Position numbers and translations under genes: made by a program. From Escherichia coli (lineage in GTDB: Bacteria; Pseudomonadota; Gammaproteobacteria; Enterobacterales; Enterobacteriaceae): a stretch of 64,000 nucleotides of DNA. Location: the NCBI RefSeq assembly GCF_050920415.1, contig NZ_CP169309.1; one strand, 5' to 3'. The notes beneath the pieces were generated by a model. The model searched no databases and was not told where the DNA came from. It worked only from the letters and a program-made list of their open reading frames with translations. Positions within the stretch are counted from its first letter, which is position 1; every line of letters starts with the position of its first letter. Shown piece by piece: positions 27,285-42,694 of the stretch.

Positions 27285-27314
27285 AAAACCGCTAATGGTC
27301 AGATTAGCGGTTTT
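27285..27314. terminator. Bidirectional hairpin terminator between gpU and the invertase
   Basis: Perfect 11-bp stem AAACCGCTAAT/ATTAGCGGTTT with 6-nt loop, between convergent genes. Confidence 0.6.
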
Positions 27315-27903
27315 CATTTTCCTGAGTCTGCCTGGTTGTTTCTTCAGCCTGTATATCGCCTACAGGGTGATAACGATAAATCGTCGATATGCCGATGTCG
27401 TAAATGATCGCCAGTTGTTTCCTGTCATGACCGTTTTTAATCAGCCTCGCTATTTGCTCGTGTTGTTCTTTTGTCAACTTCGGGCGACGTCCGCCAATGC
27501 GCCCCCGTGCGCGCGCTGCCGCCAGCCCGGCCAGTGTACGCTCTACAATTAATTCACGTTCCATTTCGGCTAAAGCCCCCATGACGTGAAAAAAGAAACG
27601 CCCCATGGGTGTTGATGTGTCAATGCTGTCCGTCAGACTACGGAAATTAACACCTTTTTCCCGCAATTCCTCAATAAGCGTGATCAGGTGTTTCATACTT
27701 CTGCCCAGTCTGTCCAGCTTCCAGACAACCAGCGTATCTCCTTCTGATAGCGTTCTGATCAGTTTTTTCAATCCCGGTCTGGCTGATTTCGTTCCGCTGA
27801 TTTTATCTTCAAAAATCAGTTCACATCCTGCGCACTCCAGCGCGTTACGCTGCAATTCTGTATTCTGGTCATTTGTTGATACGCGGACATAGCCAATAAG
27901 CAT
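27304..27903 (-). CDS. Serine-recombinase DNA invertase (Pin/Gin/Cin/Hin family)
   Basis: 199 aa starting MLIGYVRVSTNDQNTELQ; catalytic Ser in the VRVS motif; C-terminal HTH; closely resembles e14 Pin as recalled. Confidence 0.95.
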   Translation of the reverse strand: MLIGYVRVSTNDQNTELQRNALECAGCELIFEDKISGTKSARPGLKKLIRTLSEGDTLVVWKLDRLGRSMKHLITLIEELREKGVNFRSLTDSIDTSTPMGRFFFHVMGALAEMERELIVERTLAGLAAARARGRIGGRRPKLTKEQHEQIARLIKNGHDRKQLAIIYDIGISTIYRYHPVGDIQAEETTRQTQENENR

Positions 27904-27958
27904 GATGGATCCCCTGAATAAAAACCGGGGATGATGCCAGTTAGCCGTAATCTCTGCA

Positions 27959-27984
27959 TTTTCTTAAACGTTGGTTTGGGAGAA
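27959..27984. repeat. Invertase crossover site (gix/hix-like), right-hand copy
   Basis: TTTTCTTAAACG-TT-GGTTTGGGAGAA; the 14-mer 27971..27984 is the inverted repeat of 29777..29790; encodes VGLGE. Confidence 0.6.
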
Positions 27985-28440
27985 GGTGCTCCAGCTATTG
28001 GCGTTCCGTTCTTCTGGCCGTCCGCCGCAATGCCAGATACCGTAATCGAAAGCTGGTCCGGCATGGTGTTTTTGAAGTTCAACGGCGCGAAATTCTCTGC
28101 CACTGATTACCCTGTGCTGGCGAAAGTGTTTCCTTCGCTGGTATTACCTGAAGCCCGCGGTGATTTCATTCGTATCTGGGATGATGGCCGTGGTGTTGAT
28201 AGTGGCCGTGCGTTACTTTCCGCGCAATCAGACGATTTCAAAACGCACGAGCATAAAATTTTAGGGCTAAATGGAAGTGGCAGTAATGTAGTGTTTGGCA
28301 CCGTTTCGAATGCTTCTCCATTATATACCAGCGGCGTTAGTCAGCCGGGTGGAAGTGCTTTGCCCGCTTTTCAAAACCCAGGCGGTACTGAAACGCGTCC
28401 CCGTAACATCGCATTCAACTTTTTAGTAAGGGCTAAATAA
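27985..28440 (+). CDS. Silent alternative tail-fiber C-terminal cassette (Sv'-like)
   Basis: Open frame continuing from the crossover site with no credible own start; would fuse to the fiber constant region after inversion. Confidence 0.55.
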   Translation, partial: GAPAIGVPFFWPSAAMPDTVIESWSGMVFLKFNGAKFSATDYPVLAKVFPSLVLPEARGDFIRIWDDGRGVDSGRALLSAQSDDFKTHEHKILGLNGSGSNVVFGTVSNASPLYTSGVSQPGGSALPAFQNPGGTETRPRNIAFNFLVRAK

Positions 28441-29033
28441 TGAAACCTGTTTTTGATGAAAATGGACTGGCTACAGTGCCGGGTGATATGCGTTGTTTTT
28501 ATTATGATGCAGTAACGTATGAATATACGGGCTGGTCTGATGAATATATTAATACTGGTATAAGTATGCCCGCCTGTTCCACTGGTATTGACCCTGGCGA
28601 AAACATTCCGGGAAAAGTGGCTGTATTTACAGGTAAGGGATGGAGCCATGAAGAGGACCATCGCAATGAGACTGTTTACTCAATCGAAAATGGCGCAGCT
28701 GTTACAGTGGATTATATCGGTGCCATCAAAAACGGTTATGTCACGCTTTCACCGTTAACGCCATATGATAAATGGGATGGTGAGAAATGGGTGACAGATA
28801 CTGAGGCACAACACGGTGCCGCAGTAGAAGCGGCAGAAGCACAGCGTCAGCCACTGATTGATGCTGCAATGGCTTCCATCAGTCTGATTCAGCTGAAATT
28901 ACAGGCCGGGCGGAAGCTGACGCAGGCAGAAACCACCCGGCTTAACGCCGTGCTTGATTACATTGACGCGGTGACGGCAACAGATACGAGCACCGCTCCG
29001 GATGTCATCTGGCCTGAACTGCCGGAGGCGTAG
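28440..29033 (+). CDS. Tail fiber assembly protein, alternative copy (U'/tfa')
   Basis: 197 aa with C-terminal motif TSTAPDVIWPELP shared with the convergent tfa gene. Confidence 0.8.
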   Translation: MKPVFDENGLATVPGDMRCFYYDAVTYEYTGWSDEYINTGISMPACSTGIDPGENIPGKVAVFTGKGWSHEEDHRNETVYSIENGAAVTVDYIGAIKNGYVTLSPLTPYDKWDGEKWVTDTEAQHGAAVEAAEAQRQPLIDAAMASISLIQLKLQAGRKLTQAETTRLNAVLDYIDAVTATDTSTAPDVIWPELPEA

Positions 29034-29439
29034 GCCATTCAATATCTGGAGCACTGGAGGTATCAACCAGTTCCAGTGCGTCCAGATAATCCAGCCACAA
29101 ATTATATTGCGCCAGTTCCTCACCTTTCAGACGACCAATAGCCGCTTTACCAGGCCATTGCTTGGTATTCATATATTCGTTGGACTGATTAATCAATTGC
29201 TGTTTTTTCAATTCGGCTGCGGCAATCTGTTCCTCATGTGTTGGTGGTGGAATTTCAGACCATGCAGGAAAACCATTTTCCTCAGCGATACGGATTTTTC
29301 CTTTCGGCGGTAATCCGGAAAACTCAATATACACCTGCTCATCAACTTCAACAGCATCATCTGGCCATGAATTTACATTGATGTAGTCATCCTTAAGCGC
29401 AGGATTCACAAAAATATTTAAAGATGGACTAAAAAACAC
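29005..29439 (-). CDS. Tail fiber assembly protein (gpG/Tfa-like)
   Basis: 144 aa directly downstream of the fiber gene; 3' end overlaps the alternative copy convergently. Confidence 0.8.
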   Translation of the reverse strand: MFFSPSLNIFVNPALKDDYINVNSWPDDAVEVDEQVYIEFSGLPPKGKIRIAEENGFPAWSEIPPPTHEEQIAAAELKKQQLINQSNEYMNTKQWPGKAAIGRLKGEELAQYNLWLDYLDALELVDTSSAPDIEWPTPPAVQAR

Positions 29440-29440
29440 A

Positions 29441-30922
29441 TCACCCTCCTATAGCAACATAACAGCCCGATACAGGATTTGCGGCAGTCGCTACGCTGGA
29501 AAAACCACGAAAGCCGCTTTTTGTGATTGCGGAGGCAGATAGTATTCCGGCACCCGAAGGTGTATGCCCCACGTGGCTGGCAACCATCACGTAGCACGCC
29601 GACGGAAAAGCGAAAGGGAAATTGTTTAAATATCCCGCATCATCCCCCAGACTTCCCCCAAACTGCCCCACTCCCCACTGGATAATAAGTGGTCTCCGAA
29701 CGCCAGAAATAATTAATGGAATTGCTACATACCCATTCACCAACATAGCGCCGGTTGTTGCGCCAGCCAGAGCCAATTCCCCCAAACCAAGGTAATCAAG
29801 AACTCCCTGAGTGCTGGTTTTACCAAGAATGGCACGTCCAACACTTGTCAACGCGGTTAACGCGGCACGATCTGCCCCTGTAAAATATGGGAGTTTATCT
29901 GCTGATGTAGCAAGCTCCGCCAGCGCCGTCAGGGTGGCATCCTTCGGTTGCTTACCCGCAAGCGCGTTAGTCATGGTGGTCGCAAAATTCGGGTCATTGC
30001 CCAGCGCCGCAGCCAGTTCGTTCAGCGTGTTCAGTGCATCAGGTGACGAATCTACAAGTGCGGCAATCGCGGCCATAACGAAAGCCGTGCTTGCGATCTG
30101 GGTACTATTAGTCCCCTGTGGCGCTGTTGGTGTTGTTGGCGTTCCGGTCAGTGCCGGGCTGTTTAATGGTGCTTTCTTGCTCGTTTCATCCATTACCGCC
30201 TTAACAGCTTTTGGTGTCGCTGCCAGCGTTTCAGACGTGCTGTTCGTGGCGCTACTGAGCTGAACAATCCCTTTTTGTGTAGTGGTGGCGTTCTGGGCGG
30301 TATATTTCCCGTTAGCCAGGTCATATGCAGCCTTAACCGCTTTCGGTGTTGCGGCCAGTGTTTCTGATTCACTGTTAATTGCACTGCTTAACTGAGTAAA
30401 ACCTTTTACGGTCAGCGAGGCGTCCGGGTGACGTCGTGACTGTTCGTGCTCTGATATTTTATCATCCACATATTTGCGGGTTGCCAGAACCACAGACGGG
30501 TCGATTTTCAGCGTGATGGCTTCGGTGTTCGTGACAACCAGAATCATGCGGATAGTCTGGGTGCGTCCACTGCCTTCCTGCAACTGCGGTTTGTACGTTT
30601 CCGGGCAGTTTGCCACCGCAATGAGTACACCTTCATCATCATAAAGCCCAATCTCACGGATCCAGAATCCTCCCTCGTTTTCAGGGATGATTTGCTCCGC
30701 AATAATCTGGCTCTGATTGTTAGGGTCAACACTCAGAAGATTCAGCGGTGCAATGCGTTTCTGGTTAATCAGTTTTGTTTGTGCAGGGTCTGGTGTTGGT
30801 AACACACCATTTGCATCACCAACGGCCATTTGCGTCAGATTCAGCTTACTGCCGAGCATCGTCGCGTTAGCCAGTCGTGCCGCGCCCTGATTAGTCAGAA
30901 TGGCGTAGTATTTCACTGTCAT
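29441..30922 (-). CDS. Tail fiber protein (gpH-like), currently expressed variant
   Basis: 493 aa with conserved N-terminal region and repeat-rich shaft; C-terminal ~110 aa lie inside the invertible segment. Confidence 0.85.
   Translation of the reverse strand: MTVKYYAILTNQGAARLANATMLGSKLNLTQMAVGDANGVLPTPDPAQTKLINQKRIAPLNLLSVDPNNQSQIIAEQIIPENEGGFWIREIGLYDDEGVLIAVANCPETYKPQLQEGSGRTQTIRMILVVTNTEAITLKIDPSVVLATRKYVDDKISEHEQSRRHPDASLTVKGFTQLSSAINSESETLAATPKAVKAAYDLANGKYTAQNATTTQKGIVQLSSATNSTSETLAATPKAVKAVMDETSKKAPLNSPALTGTPTTPTAPQGTNSTQIASTAFVMAAIAALVDSSPDALNTLNELAAALGNDPNFATTMTNALAGKQPKDATLTALAELATSADKLPYFTGADRAALTALTSVGRAILGKTSTQGVLDYLGLGELALAGATTGAMLVNGYVAIPLIISGVRRPLIIQWGVGQFGGSLGDDAGYLNNFPFAFPSACYVMVASHVGHTPSGAGILSASAITKSGFRGFSSVATAANPVSGCYVAIGG
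29777..29802. repeat. Invertase crossover site (gix/hix-like), left-hand copy
   Basis: TTCCCCCAAACC-AA-GGTAATCAAGAA inside the fiber gene; encodes LGLGE on the minus strand. Confidence 0.6.
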
Positions 30923-31527
30923 GCGTTTACTCTCAGATTATCAATTAAATGAATGGCCGGGGCAGGGAAATAATCCCCTTCGACAATAATGGACTCCGGG
31001 GTGTAGGGATAAACCGTCAGGGCATCGCCGTGATAGCATCCCGTACCAACGAAAATCTTTCCGTTCACACTCAGGCTGATCGCCAGCCCCGTCAGATGGC
31101 GACTTACTGGTTTTGCATCCGCAATAAGGCGCTCAAGTTCCTGATACATTTCATCGGTGATGCCCTGATCAAGTACTCCGACAACAATGCGAAATGTTCC
31201 TGGCTCCTCGTTGAGTTGCCACCACTCCTTTACTTCAATCAGGTAGCCGAGAGGCTCCACGGCTCTTCGCAGTGCGCTGATGGTCCCTTTGTGTCGGTGT
31301 ATCAGCCATGCATCACGAATCACCTGTCGCTTTGTCTCTTCCGGCCAGTTGCGATCCCAGCGGTCAACGGAAAACGCCCAGGCGAGATAAGGCAGCAGAT
31401 GCACCGGGCAGGTGTCCGGCGACCACAGCGTGTTGAGGTCTACCGGAATGTCTGTAATGCGTGTTCCGACGGCTTCGGCACAACGCATGAAATTGCTGGC
31501 TGATGGCGGTAACAGTGAATTACTCAT
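30919..31527 (-). CDS. Baseplate assembly protein gpI-like
   Basis: Start trimmed to MSNSLLPP; position between fiber and gpJ. Confidence 0.75.
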   Translation of the reverse strand: MSNSLLPPSASNFMRCAEAVGTRITDIPVDLNTLWSPDTCPVHLLPYLAWAFSVDRWDRNWPEETKRQVIRDAWLIHRHKGTISALRRAVEPLGYLIEVKEWWQLNEEPGTFRIVVGVLDQGITDEMYQELERLIADAKPVSRHLTGLAISLSVNGKIFVGTGCYHGDALTVYPYTPESIIVEGDYFPAPAIHLIDNLRVNA

Positions 31528-32416
31528 TACGCCCACCTTCGCTGATGGTGAATGACTCACAACGCGCCGCCTGTATGTCGCTGATGGCCATATTCTGTGT
31601 GGGTTCGATTATTTCCACGCGTTGCACACCGTGCACATGCAGTGCGGCAGCAATGGCGGACAACGCCACGTCCTGACCGATAAGCCCCTGTTCAGCCAGC
31701 CACTTCCTGAATGACGATTCCGCCGCGGCCAGAATAGGTTCGGATTCCGGACCGGGGTAAAAGTACAGTTTTGCATTCAGCCGCCATGTCACGATGCTGG
31801 CGCTCTGTACGGTCAGGCGGTCGGCCACCGGGCGGGTATCCTCTGCATTCAGAACGGCGCGAACGGTATTAAGCAACGCCTCCGTTGCTGTGCCGTCGCC
31901 TTCAGTGGACAGGATGGAAACCGTCACATTTGCCGGAGACGGACTGATAGCCCGCGCATCACGCACCAGACCGCTGGCGCTGCGGGCAAAATACTCGTAT
32001 GCACCTGACGGGCCAGCAACACTCAGGCCGTCGTACGCCCGTTGCGCCCGCAGTCTCAGCGAGGTGTCGCTTTCCATCACCGCGTCGGTGGTATCCGTTG
32101 CCGGAGTGATAACCAGGCGCTTTGTGTTCATATTGCCTGCGAGGTTGTCCAGGTCTGTCCCGGCGCTGTGGCTTAACATGCAGGCGCGTGCACCCTCATT
32201 GACCCGCTGGCGTAACAGCATTTCACGAAACGACATGGTTTGAGCGATAACGTTAAGGGGTTCCGATTCCAGCTCCAGCGCGGCGGAGACGGCTTCACGC
32301 TGTTCGGCAGGATAGGACGCAATCATCATGGCCTTTGTGTCAGCCAGAATTGCCTCAAAGTCAGGCTCCGCGATGATGGCGGGTTCCGGTAACTGTGAAA
32401 GGTCAACGGCGGGCAT
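31520..32416 (-). CDS. Baseplate protein gpJ-like
   Basis: 298 aa, position and size. Confidence 0.85.
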   Translation of the reverse strand: MPAVDLSQLPEPAIIAEPDFEAILADTKAMMIASYPAEQREAVSAALELESEPLNVIAQTMSFREMLLRQRVNEGARACMLSHSAGTDLDNLAGNMNTKRLVITPATDTTDAVMESDTSLRLRAQRAYDGLSVAGPSGAYEYFARSASGLVRDARAISPSPANVTVSILSTEGDGTATEALLNTVRAVLNAEDTRPVADRLTVQSASIVTWRLNAKLYFYPGPESEPILAAAESSFRKWLAEQGLIGQDVALSAIAAALHVHGVQRVEIIEPTQNMAISDIQAARCESFTISEGGRNE

Positions 32417-32419
32417 GAT

Positions 32420-32770
32420 TTACTCCCTCAGCGTGATGGTTAATTCAACATTCTGCATGGTCTGCATGACAGTGCCCGACAGCGTCACCCCGGCGCGGCC
32501 TCCCGCTTTCCAGACAACGTCGATGGCATCCAGGGCAATGCGGGGTTCCCATCGTGTCAGCGCAATCACGGCAGCACTCATGCATTGCAGACGCGTGGTG
32601 TTATTCATGGGTTCGTCAATCAAATCAGGCACAAGGCTGCCATATTCCCGTCGCATAACCCGGCTTGCCAGCGGGGTGGTCAGGATGTCCCTGGCTGACT
32701 GTTTCAGGTGCTCCATATCGTTCAGGTTTCCCGTTCCGTCCGGGTTCATTCCTGTGTAGCGGGTTGTCAC
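32420..32770 (-). CDS. Baseplate wedge protein gpW-like
   Basis: 116 aa, position and size. Confidence 0.8.
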   Translation of the reverse strand: MTTRYTGMNPDGTGNLNDMEHLKQSARDILTTPLASRVMRREYGSLVPDLIDEPMNNTTRLQCMSAAVIALTRWEPRIALDAIDVVWKAGGRAGVTLSGTVMQTMQNVELTITLRE

Positions 32771-33348
32771 TGCGGGCCTCCTGTCGAATCGCTGCCACCT
32801 TTCACGCCACCGTGTTTATGCGTATGCACGGTAATGCCGTTTGAGGTGAAATTGCCGCCGCTGTGCGTGATATTGCCGCTCATCTTTCCCCCTTTTGTGA
32901 CGTCAAGCGTCGCCGTTCTCAGAAGGTCTGTGCATTCCACGACGGGCGTGTCCAGTGTCACGCTGACGGATGCCTGTAAAGTGGCCGTTTTCATGCCGCT
33001 GGCGCTCAGTGCGCCTGCGTCCGCGTCGTAGCGGAACACCGCGCCGTCCGGCGCGCTGATCACGATTTCTTTCAGGCTTTTGCCGGGGGCCGGATTGGCA
33101 TCACTCCACAGGCTGCCAATTATCATGGCGGTTTCCGGGTTGCCGCCAATGCAGGCAATTACCACCTGTTCGCCTGGTGATGGCGGCAGCCACACATTGA
33201 AGGCTCCCGCGCGCGTGGTGTTCCAGCGCAGCCAGCCTGTTTCCAGTTCGCCGCTGCGAACGCGCACGCGCCAGGACTTCTCATCAACTTCAGAGATGAT
33301 CCCGGTGCGGATGATATTGCTCAGCAGTCGCATGAGTTCTGCGCTCAC
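32767..33348 (-). CDS. Baseplate spike/assembly protein gpV-like
   Basis: 193 aa, position upstream of gpW. Confidence 0.8.
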   Translation of the reverse strand: MSAELMRLLSNIIRTGIISEVDEKSWRVRVRSGELETGWLRWNTTRAGAFNVWLPPSPGEQVVIACIGGNPETAMIIGSLWSDANPAPGKSLKEIVISAPDGAVFRYDADAGALSASGMKTATLQASVSVTLDTPVVECTDLLRTATLDVTKGGKMSGNITHSGGNFTSNGITVHTHKHGGVKGGSDSTGGPQ

Positions 33349-33989
33349 CGTACAGCCTCCGCAATCCGGCCCAGCACCGTGTTATAAATCAGGCGTTCAT
33401 CTGCCTGACTGATGCCCAACAGCTCACGTACCGGGTAATCGGTGAAAATGCCCGGCGCAACCTGATCGCGCTCACCGAACTGATGAACGCGTGCAATACG
33501 TGCGGCCACGCCGCTGTAACCCACCGTCACACCGGAAGCATCTGCACGGGCTTTCAGGTAGCGGGCGGTGCGCAGTTTTACGAACATGGGGACGCGCTTT
33601 GTGCTGTCCTGGTTGATGCGCCGGGTGCGTATTTCCAGAAAGCGGTCGATGTCATCCCGGTAAAACGTGCGGATGCTGTTTTTATCCTCATCCCACCCGG
33701 TGATGGTTCGCCCGTATTTCCCCGTGTCGTGATGCCAGTTTTTCAGCGTGCGTGCTTCGTTATTCCAGATAAAGCGAATGCGCTCCTGTATCCTGGTTAC
33801 GCGGCGTCTGCGTGGTGTCCATGCAGTCCCGTCCGGCGCTTTCTGTGACCGGATACGTGCCTGCTGGGCGCGACGTAAATCCTGTGCCAGCTTTCTGGCG
33901 ATGTTATTGATGGCCTGCTGATTCAGGCTGTCGCGGATAGCCTCAAAGGTTTCATCCACGCGGGTGAATGCCTTATCCATCGCTTTCAC
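33345..33989 (-). CDS. Virion morphogenesis / tail completion protein (gpS position)
   Basis: 214 aa, position between gpR and gpV; longer than I recall for P2 gpS. Confidence 0.6.
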   Translation of the reverse strand: MKAMDKAFTRVDETFEAIRDSLNQQAINNIARKLAQDLRRAQQARIRSQKAPDGTAWTPRRRRVTRIQERIRFIWNNEARTLKNWHHDTGKYGRTITGWDEDKNSIRTFYRDDIDRFLEIRTRRINQDSTKRVPMFVKLRTARYLKARADASGVTVGYSGVAARIARVHQFGERDQVAPGIFTDYPVRELLGISQADERLIYNTVLGRIAEAVR

Positions 33990-34440
33990 CCCACGTCACA
34001 TCCTGGAATACATGCGACCAGTCGCCTTCGGAAGAGGGCAGACGGGGTTTTGGCTCCGGCAGGTGTTCTGCCTGCGGTGTCCCCTGACTGCTGCGCGTGA
34101 TGCGAACGCGTTCCCGCAGAGGGAGCGTAAACAGGAGATCGGCGCTGTCATCGTCATTGATAACGGCGGAGAATTTGATGTCCTGATTACGCTCCGGATT
34201 GAGCAACAATTGCGGCTGATTTTCGGATAACCACGCCAGTAGCGGCAGCGTGAGGTCGTCCAGCTCCCCGGCGTAATCCATGACAAACATCACCATCTGA
34301 TAGCGGTAAACAAACGAGGGCGTTTCTCCGGTCGTTTCAATGTTGCCGCTCTCCACGAAAATGGTGAATTTTTCCGGGTTGGCCTGACACCATCGGCATG
34401 AACGGGTCATGGCTTCACGCAGGGAATCAGTTTTCAGCAT
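33973..34440 (-). CDS. Tail completion protein gpR-like
   Basis: 155 aa, position after the lysis genes. Confidence 0.7.
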   Translation of the reverse strand: MLKTDSLREAMTRSCRWCQANPEKFTIFVESGNIETTGETPSFVYRYQMVMFVMDYAGELDDLTLPLLAWLSENQPQLLLNPERNQDIKFSAVINDDDSADLLFTLPLRERVRITRSSQGTPQAEHLPEPKPRLPSSEGDWSHVFQDVTWGESDG

Positions 34441-34717
34441 GGTTGTTGTCCTCGTTGTTCAGTCGTTGCAGCCTGCGCTGTTCCAGTAATTCAATGGCCC
34501 GTTTATCCGCGTTACAGGTTTCCAGTGCATCCAGAAGGCGGTCGCCCCATATACCGAGATTTCCCCATGTGGGAGGGTCAGGGAAGGGGGGCGGCGTTAC
34601 CGGAATGGTCAGCGTCTGCGGTATAAGCCGGACTGACGGCGCTGGCAGTGGCGCGTTCTGCGTGCCTGCGCAGCCTGTCAGTAAAACGAGCGTCAGGCAA
34701 AGCGTGGGCGCATTCAT
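34427..34717 (-). CDS. o-spanin (Rz1/LysC-like outer-membrane lipoprotein)
   Basis: Lipobox LLTGC followed by a Pro-rich mature region; starts inside the i-spanin gene in another frame. Confidence 0.6.
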   Translation of the reverse strand: MNAPTLCLTLVLLTGCAGTQNAPLPAPSVRLIPQTLTIPVTPPPFPDPPTWGNLGIWGDRLLDALETCNADKRAIELLEQRRLQRLNNEDNNHAEN

Positions 34718-34985
34718 CTTTTGCAATATCGTTGCGTAGCTGTTCACGTCTTACCTCTCCGTCCTGATTGCGTTGCTGATTTTCCACGCGGAGTTGCGCC
34801 AGCACCTGCTGCATATCCTGTACCCCGGCGCTGATGATATTCAGGGTGTCGGCGGTACTTTTCAGGGTGCTGGCCTGCGCTTCGTTTCTGGCGTTCTCCC
34901 GGCCCAGCGACCACGACAGACGCATGGATGTTCCCCATCCGGCAATCAGAAGGAAAGCGACGCCAAGCGTGGGCCAGAGCTTCAT
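34578..34985 (-). CDS. i-spanin (Rz/LysB-like)
   Basis: N-terminal TM helix (LWPTLGVAFLLIAGW) followed by charged coiled-coil-like region; start trimmed to MKLWPT. Confidence 0.6.
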   Translation of the reverse strand: MKLWPTLGVAFLLIAGWGTSMRLSWSLGRENARNEAQASTLKSTADTLNIISAGVQDMQQVLAQLRVENQQRNQDGEVRREQLRNDIAKDECAHALPDARFTDRLRRHAERATASAVSPAYTADADHSGNAAPLP

Positions 34986-35374
34986 GCCGGATAGGCTCCG
35001 TGTGGTAACTGAAAATGCGGTCCGTCTTTCAGGGTCTTCCAGTCGCCGCCCCATTCCACCGGAATATTCAGCTCCCGGCTGGCCTGTCTGAATGCTGCTG
35101 CGATTTTTTCGTACAGCGGCCATTCCCATGACACCTGGCTGCCGACATAAGCCACAACATCCACGGCATGCCCCGTAAGGTGGCGGCTGTTCATGGTCTG
35201 GCTCTTACCTGTGGCCACAAGTTGCTTCTGGCGGTAACGGCTGCGCAACCCTTCGGTGATACCAAAATCCACTTCCGAGATTTCCAGTGCCCGTCGGGTC
35301 ACTTTCACCAGATCAGGATTTACGCCCTGCAAATTCTTTTCGCTCCGGCTGCTGAATTTAAATGTGTTGCTCAT
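34982..35374 (-). CDS. Endolysin, peptidase M15 family (T5-type L-alanyl-D-glutamate peptidase-like)
   Basis: 130 aa with zinc-peptidase motif SRHLTGHAVDV; resembles recalled T5 endolysin. Confidence 0.8.
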   Translation of the reverse strand: MSNTFKFSSRSEKNLQGVNPDLVKVTRRALEISEVDFGITEGLRSRYRQKQLVATGKSQTMNSRHLTGHAVDVVAYVGSQVSWEWPLYEKIAAAFRQASRELNIPVEWGGDWKTLKDGPHFQLPHGAYPA

Positions 35375-35694
35375 TCGTCCTTCTCCTTCACCCTGCGATT
35401 AAAGGCCGCAATAACCTTGTCGCGTGCTTTCTCTGCGCCCATAAAACCGATTGATGCGCCGATAAACGTCACGGCATCTTCAGGAAACCCGAAGAAGCGC
35501 AACGACCCGGCCACGGCCATGGCAAGAACGCCGCACGCCAGCGATCCCGTTACGGTCTGAACCAGTGTTCGTCCGTCATAAAGACTCATCAGCGCGGAAA
35601 TGCTGACTGCCGCGCCTACTGCATACACCGTTGGCAGGTGGTCAAAGAGCCACGCAATAACCTGCTCTGTGATCCCTGTTTGAATGGTGCTCAC
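35371..35694 (-). CDS. Holin (putative)
   Basis: About 107 aa with hydrophobic segments and charged C-terminus, immediately upstream of the endolysin; start uncertain. Confidence 0.55.
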   Translation of the reverse strand: MSTIQTGITEQVIAWLFDHLPTVYAVGAAVSISALMSLYDGRTLVQTVTGSLACGVLAMAVAGSLRFFGFPEDAVTFIGASIGFMGAEKARDKVIAAFNRRVKEKDE

Positions 35695-35696
35695 TG

Positions 35697-35903
35697 CTAC
35701 TCCCCCCACAACTGAATCATTTCTCGTTTCTTCTTCTCCGGCTCCGGCATCTCCACGTCCTGCCCGGCGTCCAGAAATACCTGCTGACAGAGTCCGGGGT
35801 TGGCATCCAGCACCTTTTCGGTGACGCCCTGCGTCGTGCCGTAGTACCGGAAACAGAGCGAATCCACGGTGTCGCCTTCCAGTGCCTTCACTTTCATCAG
35901 CAC
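35697..35903 (-). CDS. Tail protein gpX-like (LysM-like)
   Basis: 68 aa resembling recalled P2 gpX. Confidence 0.7.
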   Translation of the reverse strand: MLMKVKALEGDTVDSLCFRYYGTTQGVTEKVLDANPGLCQQVFLDAGQDVEMPEPEKKKREMIQLWGE

Positions 35904-36400
35904 AGCTCCGCAAAGATTCGCGGGCGGCGCAGAATGTCAGAGATGGCCCAGCTCACATCGCGCCACAAATCCGATGTCTGTATATCCAGTGCGTCCGCGC
36001 GGCGGTCGCCCTTATCCGTTGTGTCCGCATCGCGGTAACGCTCCAGAATCAGGGCGCGTGTGGCGGTATAAACGGCATTGCGCCAGTGCCAGAGATTGAC
36101 GCTTTCTCCGTTAATTACGGGTGCCGGAACATCGGCCAGCGTCTGATGGCCAGCCGCCTGTTGTTCCTGCTGCCACGCTTCCAGCTCGCGGGTAACGTGT
36201 GCCACGGCCCCGGTGGCGGTATGCAGCAGGCGGGAGGTGGTCACACGGCCCGGCAGTCGTATCGCCAGACGCAGCTCACGCAGCACAATATCCGGCCAGA
36301 ATGCGCCCGCTGAAATACGGGTATCACCATCATCGGTATCGGTGATGTCGTCCTCTGCGGGTCCGGGGTTGGTTCTGGCAACCATACTCATGGGGTTCAC
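35897..36400 (-). CDS. Head completion/stabilization protein gpL-like
   Basis: 167 aa, position after terminase small subunit. Confidence 0.75.
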   Translation of the reverse strand: MNPMSMVARTNPGPAEDDITDTDDGDTRISAGAFWPDIVLRELRLAIRLPGRVTTSRLLHTATGAVAHVTRELEAWQQEQQAAGHQTLADVPAPVINGESVNLWHWRNAVYTATRALILERYRDADTTDKGDRRADALDIQTSDLWRDVSWAISDILRRPRIFAELC

Positions 36401-36492
36401 TCCTGAAAAAATCGGGCGGTGGGTGCGCGGTGTAAACGGTCACGGAGTCAAACCGGAACACCGCGCACGCCGCCCGCTGACGGGGTCAGTCG

Positions 36493-37293
36493 TTAACCGC
36501 GCTTCGCCTTCTGCGTCGCGGTGGTTTTTCGTGTTGCAGGCTTCCGCGTTGTTTTTTTACTTTTGCTGCTTTCGTCCTGCGTCTGCGGTGTGCTGGCATC
36601 TTCTGGTGCGGCTGCGGAATCAGCTTTCTTCAGGGCGCGGGAAAGGGTTGCAATCTCGCGTTTCACACCTGCGTTCGGGTTCAGGTGCATCGCTTCGCGC
36701 AGCAGCTTCAGTGATGAGGCCATGCTGTCCGCATCACTCAGGCCACGGCGGGCAAAGGCGCACGCCTTGCATAATTTGGCGCGCACTTCGTCCGGCATAT
36801 CCTGGTTGGCGACAATTTCCCAAAGTGTGTCCAGTGGTTCGATAAAGGTGGACAAATCCGCGTCGGCATCCGTCCCGGCCTGCGTCAGTACCGGGTTGCA
36901 GATTTCTTCGGTCAGTACCGTGGCAGCAGTACGGCCAAAGTTATCCGGCATGATGAGGTTGTGACGGACCACATACGCACCAATACGCAGCGCAAGCGGA
37001 AGATCGCCGCAGTCAATCGCCCACACCATCAGCGTGGCAATCACTTCGTCCTGCTGCCCGCCGTCAGCCTCCAGCGTTCCCTCAATCCAGCCGGAAAAAT
37101 CCGGCAACAACTCTTTTTTGATGGCGGCTTTCGCGCTTCTTGCCTGTACGCCCTTAAGCCGGGCCTGTGCCAGACGCAGACGATACAGCACCTCTTCATG
37201 CGCGGTACGCGCGGCGTGGTCCACGCCTTCATTCGCCCGGCCTGCGCGCTGTGCCATCACGTTCTGCCAGTGTTGCTGTGCAGGAGTAATCAT
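36493..37293 (-). CDS. Terminase endonuclease (small) subunit gpM-like
   Basis: 266 aa with basic C-terminal tail; position between capsid and gpL. Confidence 0.8.
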   Translation of the reverse strand: MITPAQQHWQNVMAQRAGRANEGVDHAARTAHEEVLYRLRLAQARLKGVQARSAKAAIKKELLPDFSGWIEGTLEADGGQQDEVIATLMVWAIDCGDLPLALRIGAYVVRHNLIMPDNFGRTAATVLTEEICNPVLTQAGTDADADLSTFIEPLDTLWEIVANQDMPDEVRAKLCKACAFARRGLSDADSMASSLKLLREAMHLNPNAGVKREIATLSRALKKADSAAAPEDASTPQTQDESSKSKKTTRKPATRKTTATQKAKRG

Positions 37294-37338
37294 TTTTTCT
37301 CTCCGTTACAGGCGGGCATGATGCCCGCCGTGAGTTGA

Positions 37339-38391
37339 TTAGCTGTCGGCGAACTTCAGGCCAGTGACCATCGCGCACTTGCCATAGTCTTCAACGACAT
37401 AAGCGTCATTGATGGACTGGTAGGTGGCGATGCGGTTGTATTCCGGTTCGTCTTTCATCAGACGACGCATTGAACCTTTCTGCCAGTAAATCGACAGGTT
37501 GTTGAACGAGGTGATCAGCATCGTTGAATCCGGGAAGAACGGCGCAAGGAACACGCCCAGCCCGCCAATGGTGCGCGATGACAGAATGAGCTGCCCGGCG
37601 AGTAATTCCGCATTGGGATTCTGGCCGCTGATGCTGTTCAGCACGGGCAGACGCAGCGAGTTAAACAGGTTGCGCCCCATAATCACCACGAGGTCGTCAG
37701 CTTCCTTGTGCCATTCATCCAGCAGGGATGAGCGCGCGTCCTGTACCAGTGCATCAGCGTTCGCATACTTACCCGCGTGCGCCACGGTGTTGTCCATGTT
37801 ACGGGAGGTCAGCGTCACGTCATTCATAACGCGTTCGCTGGCGTCGGTTCTGATGTGCTCCAGCCAGCCCACGTTAACGTCCTGAAGCAACTTGTTGGTG
37901 CTGAAGTTAGACTCATCCGCGTGAGACGTGCCGTTGAAACCGATCATGATGCGGTCAAGTGCCACCTGTCGGGCAATCTGTGCGCTGATGCGGGACTGAA
38001 AATCAGGGTGTGCCGCCCAGGCATCAAGCTGCGGATATGAAATAAACGTGTCGTAGTTCACCTGTTCGCACTGGTATTTGCGGTTTTTCAGATCAACCAC
38101 GTTATTCGGGTTACGGCGTTTTGTGCCGTCATAACTGGTATTCGTGCGCGCAATCGGCCCGGTGGTATCCGGGAGGATTTTTTCGCCTTTCTGGTCGGTC
38201 ACGCCGATCACGTTAATTCTTTTTGTAAATTCGGTGCTTTCCTTTGAGGCGTTTTCAAAACGCTGCTGTACCGAGGGTTCCACGGTAAATCGCGATACCA
38301 GTGCGGAAACCGGGATATTGTTAAGCGACGCCTGCTGCGCCATATAGCAACCCAGCTTGTTGCGGGTAATATCTGACATCACCAGATTCAT
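37339..38391 (-). CDS. Major capsid protein gpN-like
   Basis: 350 aa, position and size. Confidence 0.9.
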   Translation of the reverse strand: MNLVMSDITRNKLGCYMAQQASLNNIPVSALVSRFTVEPSVQQRFENASKESTEFTKRINVIGVTDQKGEKILPDTTGPIARTNTSYDGTKRRNPNNVVDLKNRKYQCEQVNYDTFISYPQLDAWAAHPDFQSRISAQIARQVALDRIMIGFNGTSHADESNFSTNKLLQDVNVGWLEHIRTDASERVMNDVTLTSRNMDNTVAHAGKYANADALVQDARSSLLDEWHKEADDLVVIMGRNLFNSLRLPVLNSISGQNPNAELLAGQLILSSRTIGGLGVFLAPFFPDSTMLITSFNNLSIYWQKGSMRRLMKDEPEYNRIATYQSINDAYVVEDYGKCAMVTGLKFADS

Positions 38392-38414
38392 AAAAAATTT
38401 GCTCCTTTGTCTTA

Positions 38415-39284
38415 TCAGAAGTCAGCCAGCTGGTCGGAGGCTGCGCCCGTTGCGGTGAACCGGTTCTGCGGATCGCCGTCCTGCGTGCGCAGTTTTTCCT
38501 TCAGTGCTGCCAGCTCTGTGGTCAGTGAAGTGATTTTCTGGCTGTCCTGCTGATGGCGGGTTTCCAGTGCATTAAAACGGTCGATAATGTCGGCCTGTGA
38601 CGTTGCGACGCCTTCCACCGCTTCCTGAATGCGGGAGAAACTGGCGTCATCCGCTTTGCGGCCACGGCCAATAATCCCCATTACGCGGTTAAACCACTGG
38701 GTGCCTTCTTCCTGGCGTTGTTCTGCCATTTCGATGATTTCAGACTCGATGGCTTCGGAGATAAGCGGTGCTTCACCCTGGACACTGTTGAACGTCATCA
38801 CCGCCTGACGTTGCTGTGCCGTGAATTTCAGGCGCTCAGTGCCCAGGCTTGCCGGGGTGTCGGTCATCGCCAGCCCGACCAGATAGGCGCGCCCGTTAAC
38901 GGAGAACTGCGGGTGCAGTTCGATACTGGAATAGATTTTCTTGCCGTCAGCGACAAGCTGCTTCATGCGCTCGGTCGGTTCGATTTCTGCATACAGCGCA
39001 GTACGTCCGGCCAGCGGGCCTTCCGTAATATCTTCCGTACTCAGCGCGGTGACATCGCCCATTGCGGAAAATTCGCTTGACGGGCATGGCGAGAGATAGT
39101 GCTCAACGTTCACGCGGGCAGCGTAAACATCCGGGTTGAAGTTCTCGGCGGCTTCACGCAGATGTACCGGACTGATTTCGCGGCCATCAACAGTTGATCC
39201 GGAGACAGCCACGCGAAACTTTTTGCGGGATGTCTTTTTTTCATTAGCCATAGTTTTTGCCCCTCTGACTGGTTCTTCAGTCAT
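38415..39284 (-). CDS. Capsid scaffolding protein gpO-like
   Basis: 289 aa, position upstream of capsid gene. Confidence 0.85.
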   Translation of the reverse strand: MTEEPVRGAKTMANEKKTSRKKFRVAVSGSTVDGREISPVHLREAAENFNPDVYAARVNVEHYLSPCPSSEFSAMGDVTALSTEDITEGPLAGRTALYAEIEPTERMKQLVADGKKIYSSIELHPQFSVNGRAYLVGLAMTDTPASLGTERLKFTAQQRQAVMTFNSVQGEAPLISEAIESEIIEMAEQRQEEGTQWFNRVMGIIGRGRKADDASFSRIQEAVEGVATSQADIIDRFNALETRHQQDSQKITSLTTELAALKEKLRTQDGDPQNRFTATGAASDQLADF

Positions 39285-39405
39285 GATGGCAAAGCGTAAC
39301 AGGCTGATACAAAGGGCTTTTGTTGTAAGAAAACGGCCAGAACAGGGGGTTAAGGAGAACGGTTTCGCGCGCGGGTAATCTTCCTGTAATTACTCAGGGG
39401 GAGCA

Positions 39406-41157
39406 ATGATTCAGGACGCTTTTGTGCGCCAGCGTGCGCGGCAACTTTACTGGCAGGGTTATCCGCCCGCAGAAATATCACGTCTGATGGGAATAAACCC
39501 GAACACGATTTATGCGTGGAAAAAACGCGACCAGTGGGATGAAACGCCACCCGTGCAGCGTGTCACGCAGTCCATCGATGCGCGCCTCATCCAGCTCACT
39601 GAAAAACAGAATAAAACAGGTGGTGACTTCAAGGAAATAGACCTGCTGACCCGGCAGCTTAAAAAACTGCATGATGGCCAGCCGGATGCGACGGCCACAG
39701 GAAAGAAAGGCCGGGCGAAAAAGCTTAAAAATCATTTCACGCCGGAACAGATTGCCGCACTGCGGGAAAAAATCATCAGCAGGCTGGAGTGGCATCAGCG
39801 GGGCTGGTTTGACTCCCTGACCCTTTGCAGGGAAGCAGGGATACGTAACAGGATGATCCTGAAATCCCGACAGATTGGGGCGACCTGGTATTTTGCACAG
39901 GAAGCGCTGCTGATGGCGCTGCGTGACGATGTGGCGCAACCTTACCAGCGTAACCAGATTTTTTTGTCTGCGTCGCGTCGTCAGGCGTTCCAGTTTAAAA
40001 GCATTATTCAGAAGGCCGCGGCTGAAGTTGATGTGGAGTTGAAAGGGGGCGATAAAATCATCCTCTCCAACGGCGCAGAGCTGCATTTTCTCGGCACTTC
40101 TGCTGCGTCGGCACAGTCCTATACGGGCAATTTTTATTTTGATGAATTTTTCTGGGTCAGTCGCTTTGCTGAACTGCGCAAGGTGGCTGGCGCTATGGCA
40201 ACCCTCAGCGGACTGCGGCGCACCTACTTCTCCACGCCATCCACCGAAACGCACGAGGCATACGCCTACTGGAACGGCGACCGCTGGAACGAGAAAAAGG
40301 CCACGCATAAACGCCAGCGTTTTTCTGTGGACTGGAAAACGCTGCATAACGGGCTTATCTGCCCTGACCGGACGTGGCGGCAAATTGTCACGCTGGAAGA
40401 TGTGGTTAATCACGGCTGGAAACACACCGATATCGACGAAATTCGTGATGAAAACACCGAAGACGAGTTCCTCAATCTCTATATGTGTGAGTTTGTCCGC
40501 GAAGGGGAATCGGCATTTAACCTGAATATCCTGATTGGCTGCGGTGTTGACGGATACGACGACTGGAAAGACTGGAAACCTTTTGCTCCCCGCCCGATGG
40601 GGAATCGTCCGGTATGGATTGGGTATGACGCAAACGGCAGCAGTGGCAACGGCGACAGCGGCGCTGTGTCCGTGGTGGTTCCTCCGTCTGTTCCTGGTGG
40701 CCGTTTTCGAACGGTGGAGACGCGACGCGCTCAGGGGCTGGAGTTTGAAGAACAGGCCAGAGTCATTGAAGAGTTCACGTGTCGCTACAACGTGGAACAC
40801 ATCGGCATTGATGTGACGGGCGGGAACGGGGAGGCTGTTTATCAGATAGTGAAACGGTTTTTCCCTGCCGCTATTCCGTACACCTTCACGCTGTCATCAA
40901 AACGGTCGCTGGTACTGAAAATGCTGCAAATAATGCGTGCCGGGCGGTGGGAATACGATCGCGCCGAACGCGAGCTGGTCGCGGCCTTTAACGCCGTGCG
41001 TAAGGTGAAAACACCGGGCGGCTTTATCACTTACGAAACGGACCGCGCGAGGGGGATCAGCCACGGCGACCTTGCGTGGGCAACCATGCTTGCTGTCATT
41101 AACGAACCAATTGGCGGCGAAGGAGAAAACGAGCGTTTCACGGTTATGGAGTTCTGA
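39406..41157 (+). CDS. Terminase ATPase (large) subunit gpP-like
   Basis: 583 aa, divergent from gpO as in P2. Confidence 0.9.
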   Translation: MIQDAFVRQRARQLYWQGYPPAEISRLMGINPNTIYAWKKRDQWDETPPVQRVTQSIDARLIQLTEKQNKTGGDFKEIDLLTRQLKKLHDGQPDATATGKKGRAKKLKNHFTPEQIAALREKIISRLEWHQRGWFDSLTLCREAGIRNRMILKSRQIGATWYFAQEALLMALRDDVAQPYQRNQIFLSASRRQAFQFKSIIQKAAAEVDVELKGGDKIILSNGAELHFLGTSAASAQSYTGNFYFDEFFWVSRFAELRKVAGAMATLSGLRRTYFSTPSTETHEAYAYWNGDRWNEKKATHKRQRFSVDWKTLHNGLICPDRTWRQIVTLEDVVNHGWKHTDIDEIRDENTEDEFLNLYMCEFVREGESAFNLNILIGCGVDGYDDWKDWKPFAPRPMGNRPVWIGYDANGSSGNGDSGAVSVVVPPSVPGGRFRTVETRRAQGLEFEEQARVIEEFTCRYNVEHIGIDVTGGNGEAVYQIVKRFFPAAIPYTFTLSSKRSLVLKMLQIMRAGRWEYDRAERELVAAFNAVRKVKTPGGFITYETDRARGISHGDLAWATMLAVINEPIGGEGENERFTVMEF

Positions 41158-42203
41158 TGAGCAGAAAAAATAAAAAAGTGCGCATGAGTTCACGCATTGA
41201 TCTCGCTGATGCGCTCAGGAAAGAATCATCGCTCAGTGCATTCACATTTGATGGTCCTTATCGCCTGACCGGGCATGACCTGCTGGACAATATGTACTGT
41301 GCTGATAACGGGCGGTGGTATGAAACCCCGGTGGACTGGTACGGTCTGGCAAGAGCCGCCCGGCAAACGTCCTGGCATCAGTCTGCGCTTTACTTTAAGC
41401 GCAATGTATTGCTCGGTTGCTACATCCCGCACCCGCTGCTTTCCCGGCAGGATTTCTCGGCGCTGGCGCTGGACTGGTTTGTGTTCGGTAACGCATTCCT
41501 TGAGCTTCGAAGCAATATGCTCGGCGAACCGCTTAAATTACGGCACGCCCTGGCGAAATACATGCGACGCGGAAGCGATCTTGAATCATGGTGGTATGTG
41601 CAGGATGGCAAGGATGCGTTTCAGTTTCGCCCAGGCAAAGTGTGCCACCTGATGAATCCGGACATTAACCAGGAAATCTACGGCATGCCGGAATATCTCG
41701 GCGCATTACTCTCGGCCAGCCTGTCTCATTCGGCGGACATGTTCAGAAAACTGTATTACGACAACGGATCCCACGCCGGGTGCATCATCTACATCGGTGC
41801 AGCGCAGGTAAACCGCGAAAGCATGGACTCCCTGAAAGAAACGCTACAGGGTGCGCGTGGTGGTGGTGCGTTTAAAAACGTGCTCATTCATGCGCCCAAC
41901 GGGGGCAAAGAGGGGGTGCAAATTTTGCCGTTCCAGCAGATCACCGCAAAGGATGAGTTCATGAATGTTAAGGCGGCATCCCGTGATGATGTGCTGGCTG
42001 CGCACCGCGTTCCGCCGCAACTGATGGGGGCGATGCCGGGTGAAAAAAGTGCGTTTGGTGATGTGGAGAAGGCCGCGCGGGTTTACGCAATTAACGAGCT
42101 GATGCCCGTCATGGAGGCCATGAAGCATATCAATGACTGGCTTGGCGAAGAGGTGCTCCGCTTTAACCCTTACGCACTGCTGGACACCCAGCCCACATCC
42201 TGA
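41157..42203 (+). CDS. Portal protein gpQ-like
   Basis: 348 aa directly after the terminase gene. Confidence 0.9.
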   Translation: MSRKNKKVRMSSRIDLADALRKESSLSAFTFDGPYRLTGHDLLDNMYCADNGRWYETPVDWYGLARAARQTSWHQSALYFKRNVLLGCYIPHPLLSRQDFSALALDWFVFGNAFLELRSNMLGEPLKLRHALAKYMRRGSDLESWWYVQDGKDAFQFRPGKVCHLMNPDINQEIYGMPEYLGALLSASLSHSADMFRKLYYDNGSHAGCIIYIGAAQVNRESMDSLKETLQGARGGGAFKNVLIHAPNGGKEGVQILPFQQITAKDEFMNVKAASRDDVLAAHRVPPQLMGAMPGEKSAFGDVEKAARVYAINELMPVMEAMKHINDWLGEEVLRFNPYALLDTQPTS

Positions 42204-42656
42204 CGCGCTTCGCTTGTCTGCTGCTTCGCCGGGGCATAAAAAATTTATGCCCCGACTCTCCAGCTCCTGTATCAGTCAGATAATTTCACGACGCCTTCCA
42301 GTTTATCGCCACTATCGACAGTCAGACTCTTACGCAATCCCACTGCGCTGACTGCATGTTCTCGCCGCCTCAGTGCGATTTTGACGGCCTTATCTGCCAC
42401 CCCGTCAAATCAAAAGCCCTCACGTCTTTTTCACGCTCAGCGTGAGAAATACAGCCATTCTGTTGTGTCGCTGCGACATCGTTCAGGGGATGCTATTTAC
42501 CCCCTGAAACGCGGGCTGTTCCCCCGTCACCTGCGCGTAGAAAAAGCGCGTTTTTTTGTGCACGCACGGATCCTTGACGGATCCAGCCGCCACGCGGGCC
42601 GGAAGGGCAAAAAGTCGTTCAAAAAAATTGTGCAAATTTGTGCACTATTGTGCATT

Positions 42657-42686
42657 GAAATAAACGCCCTGGAAGAGGGCGTTTTG
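42657..42686 (-). terminator. Terminator at the end of the cargo operon
   Basis: Hairpin AACGCCCTCTTCCAGGGCGTT followed by a T-rich tail on the minus strand. Confidence 0.5.
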
Positions 42687-42694
42687 GCTCATTT

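Follow-up and report, generated by a model that had tools for sequence, protein, structure and literature searches.

The lysis genes described here lie on the minus strand at positions 34427-35694 of the window (the whole 64,000-nucleotide stretch of Escherichia coli DNA that was analysed), at the coordinates given in the original prediction. There are four of them, sitting between the tail genes X and R in the order holin, endolysin, i-spanin and o-spanin. The features of this region are listed below.

35697..35903, minus strand: tail protein X, the upstream flank and a conserved P2-family anchor gene (Pfam PF05489 Phage_tail_X, E 1.7e-20)
35371..35694, minus strand: holin of 107 aa, lambda S family, GTG start (PF05106 Phage_holin_3_1; phrog_126)
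34982..35374, minus strand: endolysin of 130 aa, a soluble M15C zinc peptidase predicted to be an L-alanyl-D-glutamate endopeptidase (PF13539; phrog_465)
34965..35393: segment whose place is taken, one gene for another, by a GH108 endolysin in a minority of cassettes that are otherwise 97% identical (alignment with Citrobacter phage Shae_phiSM)
34578..34985, minus strand: i-spanin (Rz/LysB-like) of 135 aa with an N-terminal membrane anchor (phrog_214)
34427..34747 (or from 34717), minus strand: o-spanin (Rz1/LysC-like) lipoprotein (PF23793 LysC; lipobox LLTG|C)
33973..34440, minus strand: tail completion protein R, the downstream flank (Pfam PF06891 P2_Phage_GpR, E 4.6e-40)

Cassette layout and genomic context

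The cassette is compact. ATGA overlaps at the holin/endolysin and endolysin/i-spanin junctions couple these genes translationally, and the o-spanin gene extends 14 nt into gene R. GC content (0.55-0.60) matches that of the flanking genes, and the HMM family scores of the cassette proteins are far beyond chance. Scanning for promoters and terminators across window 32000-40500 returned nothing above shuffled expectation: inside the cassette there is no break on the coding strand resembling either element beyond chance, and nothing similar to the attenuator annotated in P2 lysC was seen. No Rfam family reached its gathering score over the whole prophage (19000-53000), and PADLOC recognised none of the unmatched prophage ORFs. 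Plus-strand ORFs over the cassette (e.g. 35168-35560 and 34398-34739) were taken as frame shadows of the minus-strand genes.

The endolysin

A domain search on the 130-aa endolysin returned the family that had been claimed for it: it is a zinc peptidase of the M15 (M15C) family and a homologue of the T5 enzyme. It matches Pfam PF13539 Peptidase_M15_4 at 46 bits, above the gathering score of 25 (E 7.8e-12), phrog_465 (E 4e-77) and three PDB entries, i.e. 23ri (EndoRB49-type; E 1.5e-48), 5opz (Serratia marcescens ChiX; E 1.8e-48) and 2mxz (T5 L-alanyl-D-glutamate peptidase; E 1.2e-22). We take 23ri, to which entry 8q2g is related, to be EndoRB49, since the RB49 mutagenesis primers that PMC10487532 quotes match the 23ri sequence. 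Five residues (H65, D72, W112, D117 and H120) are invariant in alignment A1, where H65/D72/H120 match the zinc ligands H68/D75/H123 of ChiX, D117 matches its catalytic D120 (PMC5778951) and W112 corresponds to T5 W114 and RB49 W109 (PMC10487532). The LAS-type zinc ligands His-Asp-His, the catalytic Asp and the nearby Trp have all been kept.

Over its full length, and without internal gaps, the endolysin is 63% identical to 23ri and 62% to ChiX. Its identity to a T5-like orthologue is ~41%, with an 11-residue gap in the alignment between W112 and D117. In T5, that segment is a mobile loop to which regulatory Ca2+ binds (PMC10487532), and the endolysin lacks it. With 11 residues fewer than the T5-like enzyme at this point, but no gap against 23ri and ChiX, the endolysin belongs to the RB49/ChiX subtype and not to the T5 subtype. 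The earlier description 'T5-type' therefore holds for the M15C family but not for the subtype, which is nearer to EndoRB49-type 23ri and ChiX. ChiX is a biochemically shown L-Ala-D-Glu endopeptidase, and 62-63% identity to characterised enzymes suggests that the endolysin would be specific for the same bond. The P88 endolysin (YP_009113074.1) is already among the listed M15_C orthologues of EndoT5 (PMC10487532); in the literature, we found no experiment on the window endolysin or on P88 lysis.

The holin

The putative holin that was said to precede the endolysin is borne out by matches to PF05106 Phage_holin_3_1 (E 1.1e-19; 71 bits against a cut-off of 23.8) and to phrog_126 (holin/anti-holin; E 1.7e-35). 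Its GTG start lies 5 nt after GGGGGAG, and its hydropathy profile is lambda S-like, with two strong and one weaker hydrophobic segment followed by a charged C-terminal tail. The third transmembrane segment is weakly hydrophobic in a simple hydropathy plot. Identity to lambda S is 23% over 60 aa (E 1e-4), and the protein belongs to the lambda S family of class I, large-hole, three-segment holins. A dual-start (antiholin) motif is absent, since the gene has one GTG start and no further Met codon before residue 36, which lies within the first hydrophobic segment. A dual start is a feature of lambda and no strict requirement of the lambda S family, and ChiW is without one too. BLASTP detected no similarity between the holin and P2 gpY (PF04550/phrog_175), and the Pfam and PHROG families of the two proteins differ.

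These features bear on whether the cassette could be a pinholin/SAR-endolysin system, as is common among Gram-negative phages; there, Sec exports the endolysin, and the holin does no more than depolarise the membrane. Nothing specific points to such a system here. The endolysin has no hydrophobic segment or signal peptide, and hence no N-terminal SAR segment, while the holin is in a family of large-hole, three-segment holins, which together make this possibility extremely improbable.

The spanins

The endolysin gene is followed, as predicted, by an i-spanin and an overlapping, out-of-frame o-spanin lipoprotein. The i-spanin matches phrog_214 (Rz-like spanin; E 1.5e-41) and, more weakly, phrog_89 (the P2 LysB family; E 6.7e-5); reciprocally, P2 LysB matches phrog_214 (E 2e-4). 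Its score against Pfam DUF2570 is below threshold (20 bits against a cut-off of 26.6), and a hydrophobic stretch occupies its N-terminus (roughly residues 4-20). The o-spanin, in which the lipobox LLTG|C precedes a proline-rich mature part, matches Pfam PF23793 LysC (E 5e-13), the family to which P2 LysC belongs, as well as phrog_3001 (E 7e-26) and phrog_456 (E 7e-18), the latter being the best family of P2 LysC. It is 29% identical to P2 LysC itself (E 1.7e-4). Two starts can be considered for the o-spanin gene, a GTG at 34747 that lies 6 nt after GGAGAGG and an ATG at 34717 without such a ribosome-binding site. The gene begins inside the i-spanin gene in a different frame, and ends 151 nt beyond the i-spanin stop. 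These proteins are remote, diverged homologues of LysB and LysC, with a two-component, overlapped architecture of the P2 LysB/LysC type.

A lineage standard of P88-like prophages

The prophage was originally predicted to have a P2 backbone, which does not agree with its similarity to P88. Over window 31084-42721 (11.6 kb, cassette included), nucleotide identity to P88 is 97% and protein identity 98-100%, with no break at the cassette edges, and ~28 kb of window 19.7-50.5 kb align to P88 in collinear blocks of 91-98% identity. Tail protein X is 98.5% identical to P88 gp29 and 48% to P2 gpX, and tail completion protein R is 100% identical to P88 gp33 and 40% to P2 gpR. Every close phage match is either assigned to Xuanwuvirus or P88-like, and the prophage is a P88-like member of the genus Xuanwuvirus (family Peduoviridae) in the E. 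coli chromosome. Proteins encoded by the flanking genes are only 25-48% identical to those of P2, and therefore point to a different genus and not to a P2 genome with an insert.

In P88 (Xuanwuvirus P88, NC_026014), the same genes are found in the same order and at the same X-R position (gp30 holin, gp31 Peptidase M15 endolysin and gp32 DUF2570). The two cassettes are 98.7% identical at the nucleotide level, with proteins 98-99% identical and point differences only. The P88 record has no o-spanin annotation, although P88 DNA contains the gene, and the P88 paper mentions the lysis module without detail (PMC5285337). Outside the cassette, differences from P88 are found in the tail-fibre region, in a 0.9-kb insert near 42.7-43.65 kb and at the immunity/integrase end.

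The same cassette is present, 95-99% identical, in 15 of 16 matching phage records, and it occurs in about 1,007-1,051 of 5,426 complete E. coli genomes (~19%), where RefSeq annotates it as holin/M15 family metallopeptidase/DUF2570/LysC. It is therefore an already known and already annotated lineage standard of P88-like prophages and not a fresh gene swap in a P2 genome. The modular cassette exchange put forward in the original prediction fails on a count that the prediction itself had named, the cassette being standard in its phage lineage.

Gene-by-gene exchange between X and R

A true swap can nevertheless be found within the lineage. Citrobacter phage Shae_phiSM is 97% identical to the window up to 35394 and again from 34964, with no similarity between, and the replacing gene encodes a PF05838 Glyco_hydro_108 plus PF09374 protein. 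The M15C/GH108 breakpoints fall within ~20 nt of the endolysin ORF, while the holin and spanins are 97% identical. This GH108 variant is present in 32 of 5,426 complete E. coli genomes, and is thus a rare variant in which exactly the endolysin gene has been exchanged. In SEN4, the holin is 55% identical, the lysozyme is of family GH24 and the spanin is a DUF2514 protein. Across Peduoviridae, the X-R interval is mosaic, with holin, endolysin and spanins exchanged as single genes.

Could the window cassette itself have arisen in this way, by recent recombination that replaced the Y-K-lysA-lysB-lysC cassette of a P2-type genome with a foreign T5-like one? The mosaicism seen in SEN4 and Shae_phiSM would fit, as would the homology of the endolysin to the T5 enzyme and the comparison with P2, in which holin and endolysin are of other families without detectable similarity to gpY and gpK, and lysA has no counterpart. 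However, (i) the flanking genes are themselves diverged from P2 to the extent given above, (ii) the cassette is collinear with that of P88 at 97% identity, with unbroken edges, (iii) it has the GC content of its neighbours, (iv) its spanins are LysB/LysC homologues, (v) the T5-like lysis region (a 218-aa holin, no adjacent spanins) matches in enzyme family alone and (vi) nearly a fifth of complete E. coli genomes carry it. Such a replacement is therefore very unlikely. The notion that the whole cassette is foreign to P2 is right for holin and endolysin, but not for the spanins, whose layout is the same in both.

Whether the M15C/GH108 polymorphism is maintained by selection is another matter. 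That it is under selection and not neutral mosaicism, and the related idea that P88-type cassettes are the source of domesticated ChiWXYZ-like secretion systems, is a speculation to which we give little credence. Candidate pressures might be host peptidoglycan chemistry or a host factor directed against one endolysin class.

Proposed lysis sequence

We consider it very probable that these genes are the lysis cassette native to the late operon of a P88-like prophage, and form a canonical holin-endolysin-spanin system. In such a system, the three-segment holin of the lambda S family would build up in the inner membrane and open holes at a set time, which would let the soluble, cytoplasmically folded 130-aa M15C peptidase into the periplasm. 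There, the enzyme would cleave the stem peptide of peptidoglycan at its L-Ala-D-Glu bond, after which the i-spanin of the inner membrane and the lipoprotein o-spanin of the outer membrane would disrupt the latter. Gene structure, family memberships, conservation of the catalytic residues and distribution of the cassette enter this scheme as observed, while bond specificity, holin dependence and order of events are borrowed, as the likely ones, from the homologues EndoRB49, EndoT5, ChiX, lambda S and P2 LysB/LysC.

The peptidase and holin might instead have a mainly non-lytic role in secretion or peptidoglycan remodelling, as ChiWX have in Serratia marcescens chitinase secretion. The 62% identity between endolysin and ChiX speaks for this, together with the fact that ChiW too has a single start and belongs to the lambda S (holin-3) family, as the window holin does, and that chiWXYZ encodes two spanin-like proteins as well. 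Yet the window genes stand between head and tail genes, as part of a complete P88-like prophage late operon, whereas no phage genes lie near the chi locus, and P88 is inducible and yields plaque-forming phage (PMC5285337). Spanin-like genes differ too, since ChiY is a lipoprotein and ChiZ a single-TM protein, an order that by gene naming puts the lipoprotein first, in contrast to the i-spanin-first, overlapping layout of the window. A secretory role is for these reasons highly improbable, and lysis remains the preferred function of the cassette.

The main value of this analysis is correct annotation (the prophage genus is P88-like, not P2), and it has little significance beyond that. In this lineage the M15 endolysin is the default, and its subtype has been refined to RB49/ChiX-like. 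The question can be regarded as settled because the endolysin is 62-63% identical to solved structures and has ~1,000 near-identical genomic copies. The enzyme is small, globular, very common and near the characterised EndoRB49, and could be of minor practical interest as an enzybiotic scaffold; EndoRB49 is called thermally resistant in the title of a reference cited in PMC10487532.

Comparison with known systems

P2 (Y, K, lysA, lysB, lysC) has its lysis genes at the same X-R position in the late operon, and its spanin pair has the same overlapped layout, with both o-spanins in Pfam LysC. The systems differ in holin family (PF05106 in the window, PF04550 in P2), in endolysin class (an M15C peptidase versus the lambda-R-like gpK, as had been claimed) and in their spanins, which are at most 29% identical. 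There is no LysA-like ORF between endolysin and spanins in the window cassette. P2 gpK is 55% identical to lambda R, a kinship shown by BLASTP because Pfam matched neither protein. When the cassette proteins were compared by BLASTP with those of P2 and lambda, the only matches were weak ones, of the spanins and of the holin to lambda S; neither holin nor endolysin matched anything in P2. Relative to P2, the holin and endolysin are thus non-orthologous, lysA is missing and the spanins are diverged homologues.

Lambda S-R-Rz/Rz1 shares with the window cassette its holin family, four-function logic and gene order. The lambda endolysin is a transglycosylase and not an M15C peptidase, Rz1 is fully embedded in Rz whereas the window o-spanin overlaps the 3' end of the i-spanin gene, and lambda S has a dual start that the window holin lacks.

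EndoT5 (PDB 2mxz) has the M15C family and fold, zinc ligands, catalytic Asp and nearby Trp in common with the window endolysin, but in the T5-like enzyme 11 additional residues lie between Trp and catalytic Asp, and the T5-like genome context shares only the enzyme family. Likeness to chiWXYZ at the level of the cassette rests on the paper's description of ChiW, ChiY and ChiZ. The closest enzymes come from quite different settings: phage RB49 is lytic and T4-like, ChiX is a chromosomal secretion factor and the window endolysin is encoded by a prophage. All three have the same short loop after the conserved Trp, and ChiX and the window endolysin carry identical SRHLTGHAVD and DGPH motifs.

The lysis cassette between genes X and R

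All the elements listed by the original prediction are real and lie where it had placed them, that is, four minus-strand lysis genes at window 34427-35694, flanked by the genes for tail protein X (PF05489) and tail completion protein R (PF06891):

35694-35371, minus strand: holin, 107 aa, PF05106 (Phage_holin_3_1, lambda S family; E 1.1e-19) and phrog_126 (E 1.7e-35)
35374-34982, minus strand: endolysin, 130 aa, PF13539 (Peptidase_M15_4; 46 bits) and phrog_465 'endolysin' (E 4e-77)
34985-34578, minus strand: i-spanin, 135 aa, hydrophobic N-terminus, best family phrog_214 'Rz-like spanin' (E 1.5e-41)
34747 or 34717 to 34427, minus strand: o-spanin, PF23793 'Rz1-like lysis system protein LysC' (E 5e-13)

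These matches bear out a putative holin ahead of the endolysin and, after it, an i-spanin and a partly overlapping o-spanin, a lipoprotein encoded in a different frame with a lipobox (LLTG/C) and a proline-rich mature portion. ATGA overlaps join the holin and endolysin genes as well as the endolysin and i-spanin genes, and the o-spanin gene starts within the i-spanin gene and ends 151 nt past its stop, an arrangement known for spanins as 'overlapped'. The holin gene has one start only, a GTG located 5 bases downstream of GGGGGAG, no LysA-like protein is encoded in the cassette, nothing resembling a promoter or terminator rises above background within it, and its genes have the same GC content as the adjoining ones (0.55-0.60).

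Annotation of the o-spanin start is inconsistent between records, and the gene is left out of the RefSeq record of phage P88 (Xuanwuvirus, Peduoviridae). RefSeq E. coli records use a CTG (window 34696, 89 aa), which leaves only an 8-residue signal peptide; the GTG at 34747 (minus strand), preceded 6 nt upstream by GGAGAGG, yields a 106-aa protein with a normal Lys-containing signal peptide, and the ATG at 34717 (minus strand) is without a ribosome-binding site.

An M15C endolysin and its likely role

The endolysin had been likened to the L-alanyl-D-glutamate peptidase of phage T5, and its PF13539 match indeed clears the curated cut-off of 25 bits. Searching solved structures (PDB) by sequence returned four strong matches: 23ri ('Peptidase M15C domain-containing protein', E 1.5e-48), 5opz (ChiX of Serratia marcescens, E 1.8e-48), 8q2g ('Peptidoglycan L-alanyl-D-glutamate endopeptidase', E 2e-46) and 2mxz (L-alanyl-D-glutamate peptidase of phage T5, E 1.2e-22). 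The mutagenesis primers given for RB49 in PMC10487532 agree with the sequence of 23ri, and on that basis we equate 23ri with EndoRB49. In a four-way alignment, the window enzyme shows identities of 63% with 23ri, 62% with ChiX and 41% with a T5-like orthologue. Invariant residues are (i) H65, D72 and H120, equivalent to the ChiX zinc ligands H68/D75/H123, (ii) D117, equivalent to ChiX D120, which is catalytic and whose replacement abolishes activity (PMC5778951) and (iii) W112, equivalent to a conserved Trp that has been studied as W114 of EndoT5 and W109 of EndoRB49 (PMC10487532). Unlike the window endolysin, the T5-like enzyme has 11 additional residues between the conserved Trp and the catalytic Asp, a segment that in T5 is a mobile loop binding regulatory Ca2+ and that RB43 and RB49 are without (PMC10487532). 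Because these residues are absent, the likeness to T5 stands at the level of the M15C family only, and the enzyme is of the RB49/ChiX subtype. The M15C endolysin family is present in 1,328 phage records, and the P88 endolysin (YP_009113074.1) has already been aligned in print with other M15_C orthologues of EndoT5 (PMC10487532).

Because the endolysin is without a hydrophobic segment, it is soluble and should depend on the holin for reaching the periplasm; a pinholin/SAR system is rejected, the enzyme having no SAR segment. A ChiWX-like non-lytic secretion device was also considered, as suggested by the 62% identity to ChiX and by ChiW being likewise a single-start holin of the lambda S family, but the cassette belongs to a complete prophage, and the phage type is inducible. 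For phage lysis, gene structure and families are observed and the remaining steps are drawn from characterised homologues. Late transcription along the head/tail operon would lead to production of the holin, which would permeabilise the inner membrane at a defined time, the zinc peptidase, already folded, would pass the holin lesions and then, by analogy, cleave stem-peptide L-Ala-D-Glu bonds, and the i-spanin/o-spanin complex would then remove the outer-membrane barrier.

A P88-like prophage

The cassette was originally thought to have been swapped into a P2 backbone, but the backbone is not P2. From ~19.7 to 50.5 kb, the window aligns with Escherichia phage P88 in collinear blocks at 91-98% nucleotide identity, including an unbroken 11.6-kb block at 97% (31084-42721) that covers the cassette together with adjoining genes; X, holin, endolysin, i-spanin and R are 98-100% identical to the P88 proteins. 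Identity of the flanking proteins to P2 is only 26-48% (gpX 48%, gpR 40%, gpL 38%, gpM 37%, gpV 47%, gpS 26%).

The 1,268-nt cassette region is found at 95-99% identity in 15 phage records (P88, 500465-2, 503458, 520873, P884B11, Chuche, PhiR44_2 and others), those carrying a taxonomy line being Xuanwuvirus, and among complete E. coli genomes (5,426), 1,007 have at least 80% of its length and 1,051 have the M15 gene. The cassette is thus standard in its phage lineage, an outcome that the original prediction had itself listed as refuting it; it was also known before and is annotated, under the RefSeq names 'phage holin family protein', 'M15 family metallopeptidase', 'DUF2570 domain-containing protein' and 'Rz1-like lysis system protein LysC'. 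A recent swap of the cassette into a P2 genome is rejected in view of this distribution and of the collinearity with P88. The observation itself is confirmed and its interpretation partly supported: enzyme family and gene roles were right, and the swap into a P2 backbone was wrong in the sense intended.

In the E. coli chromosome, the prophage lies between the glyW-cysT-leuZ tRNA cluster (tRNA-Gly/Cys/Leu; 18.5-18.8 kb, 18484-18785) and yecA/tyrP/ftnA (53600-57000), with an integrase-side junction common to 488 of 5,426 complete genomes (at least 80% coverage). The tail-fibre region (27304-31083), which is diverged from P88 (81-87% patches only) and adjoins a segment that aligns with the DNA invertase gene of P88 (window ~27315-27902), is suggestive of an invertible or exchangeable host-range module. 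A ~0.9-kb segment (42722-43651) that is not in P88, between the portal and ClpX-zinc-finger genes, occupies a place similar to that of cargo hot spots in P2-like phages; it overlaps two ORFs, 42381-42866 (plus strand) and 42966-43319 (minus strand), for which no Pfam or PADLOC matches were found. The immunity end (51110-52557, plus strand), unmatched in P88 and in the prophage of E. coli strain M19, encodes in order a 134-aa HTH repressor-like protein, a 216-aa ORF without family assignment and a 115-aa DUF2511 protein, directly upstream of the integrase (52563-53564). These genes, which gave no PADLOC matches, may be cargo.

Modular exchange between X and R

A GH108 + PG_binding_3 endolysin (L003 2802-3441) replaces the M15 gene (window 34965-35393), which is the majority form (~30 to 1), in the Xuanwuvirus Citrobacter phage Shae_phiSM and in 32 of 5,426 E. 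coli genomes. The holin and spanins of these cassettes are 96-99% identical to those of the window, and similarity stops at window 35393 and restarts at 34964, at most ~20 nt from each end of the endolysin ORF, so that the two forms differ by a precise single-gene replacement. In Salmonella phage SEN4 (Senquatrovirus; L007, 2501-3892), the X-R interval encodes a holin of the same family (55% identical), a GH24 Phage_lysozyme and a DUF2514-type spanin. Together, these arrangements make the X-R interval a mosaic site in Peduoviridae, exchanged gene by gene across genera. They support the general idea of modularity in the original prediction, without pointing to a swap in the window itself.

Comparison with P2

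The holins belong to different families (PF05106/phrog_126 in the window, PF04550/phrog_175 for P2 gpY) and, as predicted, the endolysin is not of the P2 gpK type, gpK sharing 55% identity with the endolysin R of lambda and showing no similarity to the M15 peptidase. No equivalent of P2 lysA exists in the cassette, since the stop of the endolysin gene overlaps the start of the i-spanin gene. In contrast, the overlapped spanin layout is the same, the o-spanin and P2 LysC share PF23793 and phrog_456 (29% identity, E 1.7e-4), and the i-spanin and P2 LysB show reciprocal PHROG matches (phrog_214, phrog_89; E about 1e-4), which makes the window spanins remote homologues of LysB/LysC. The non-orthologous difference thus extends only to the holin, the endolysin and the missing lysA, and it sits between genera of Peduoviridae, not inside the window prophage.
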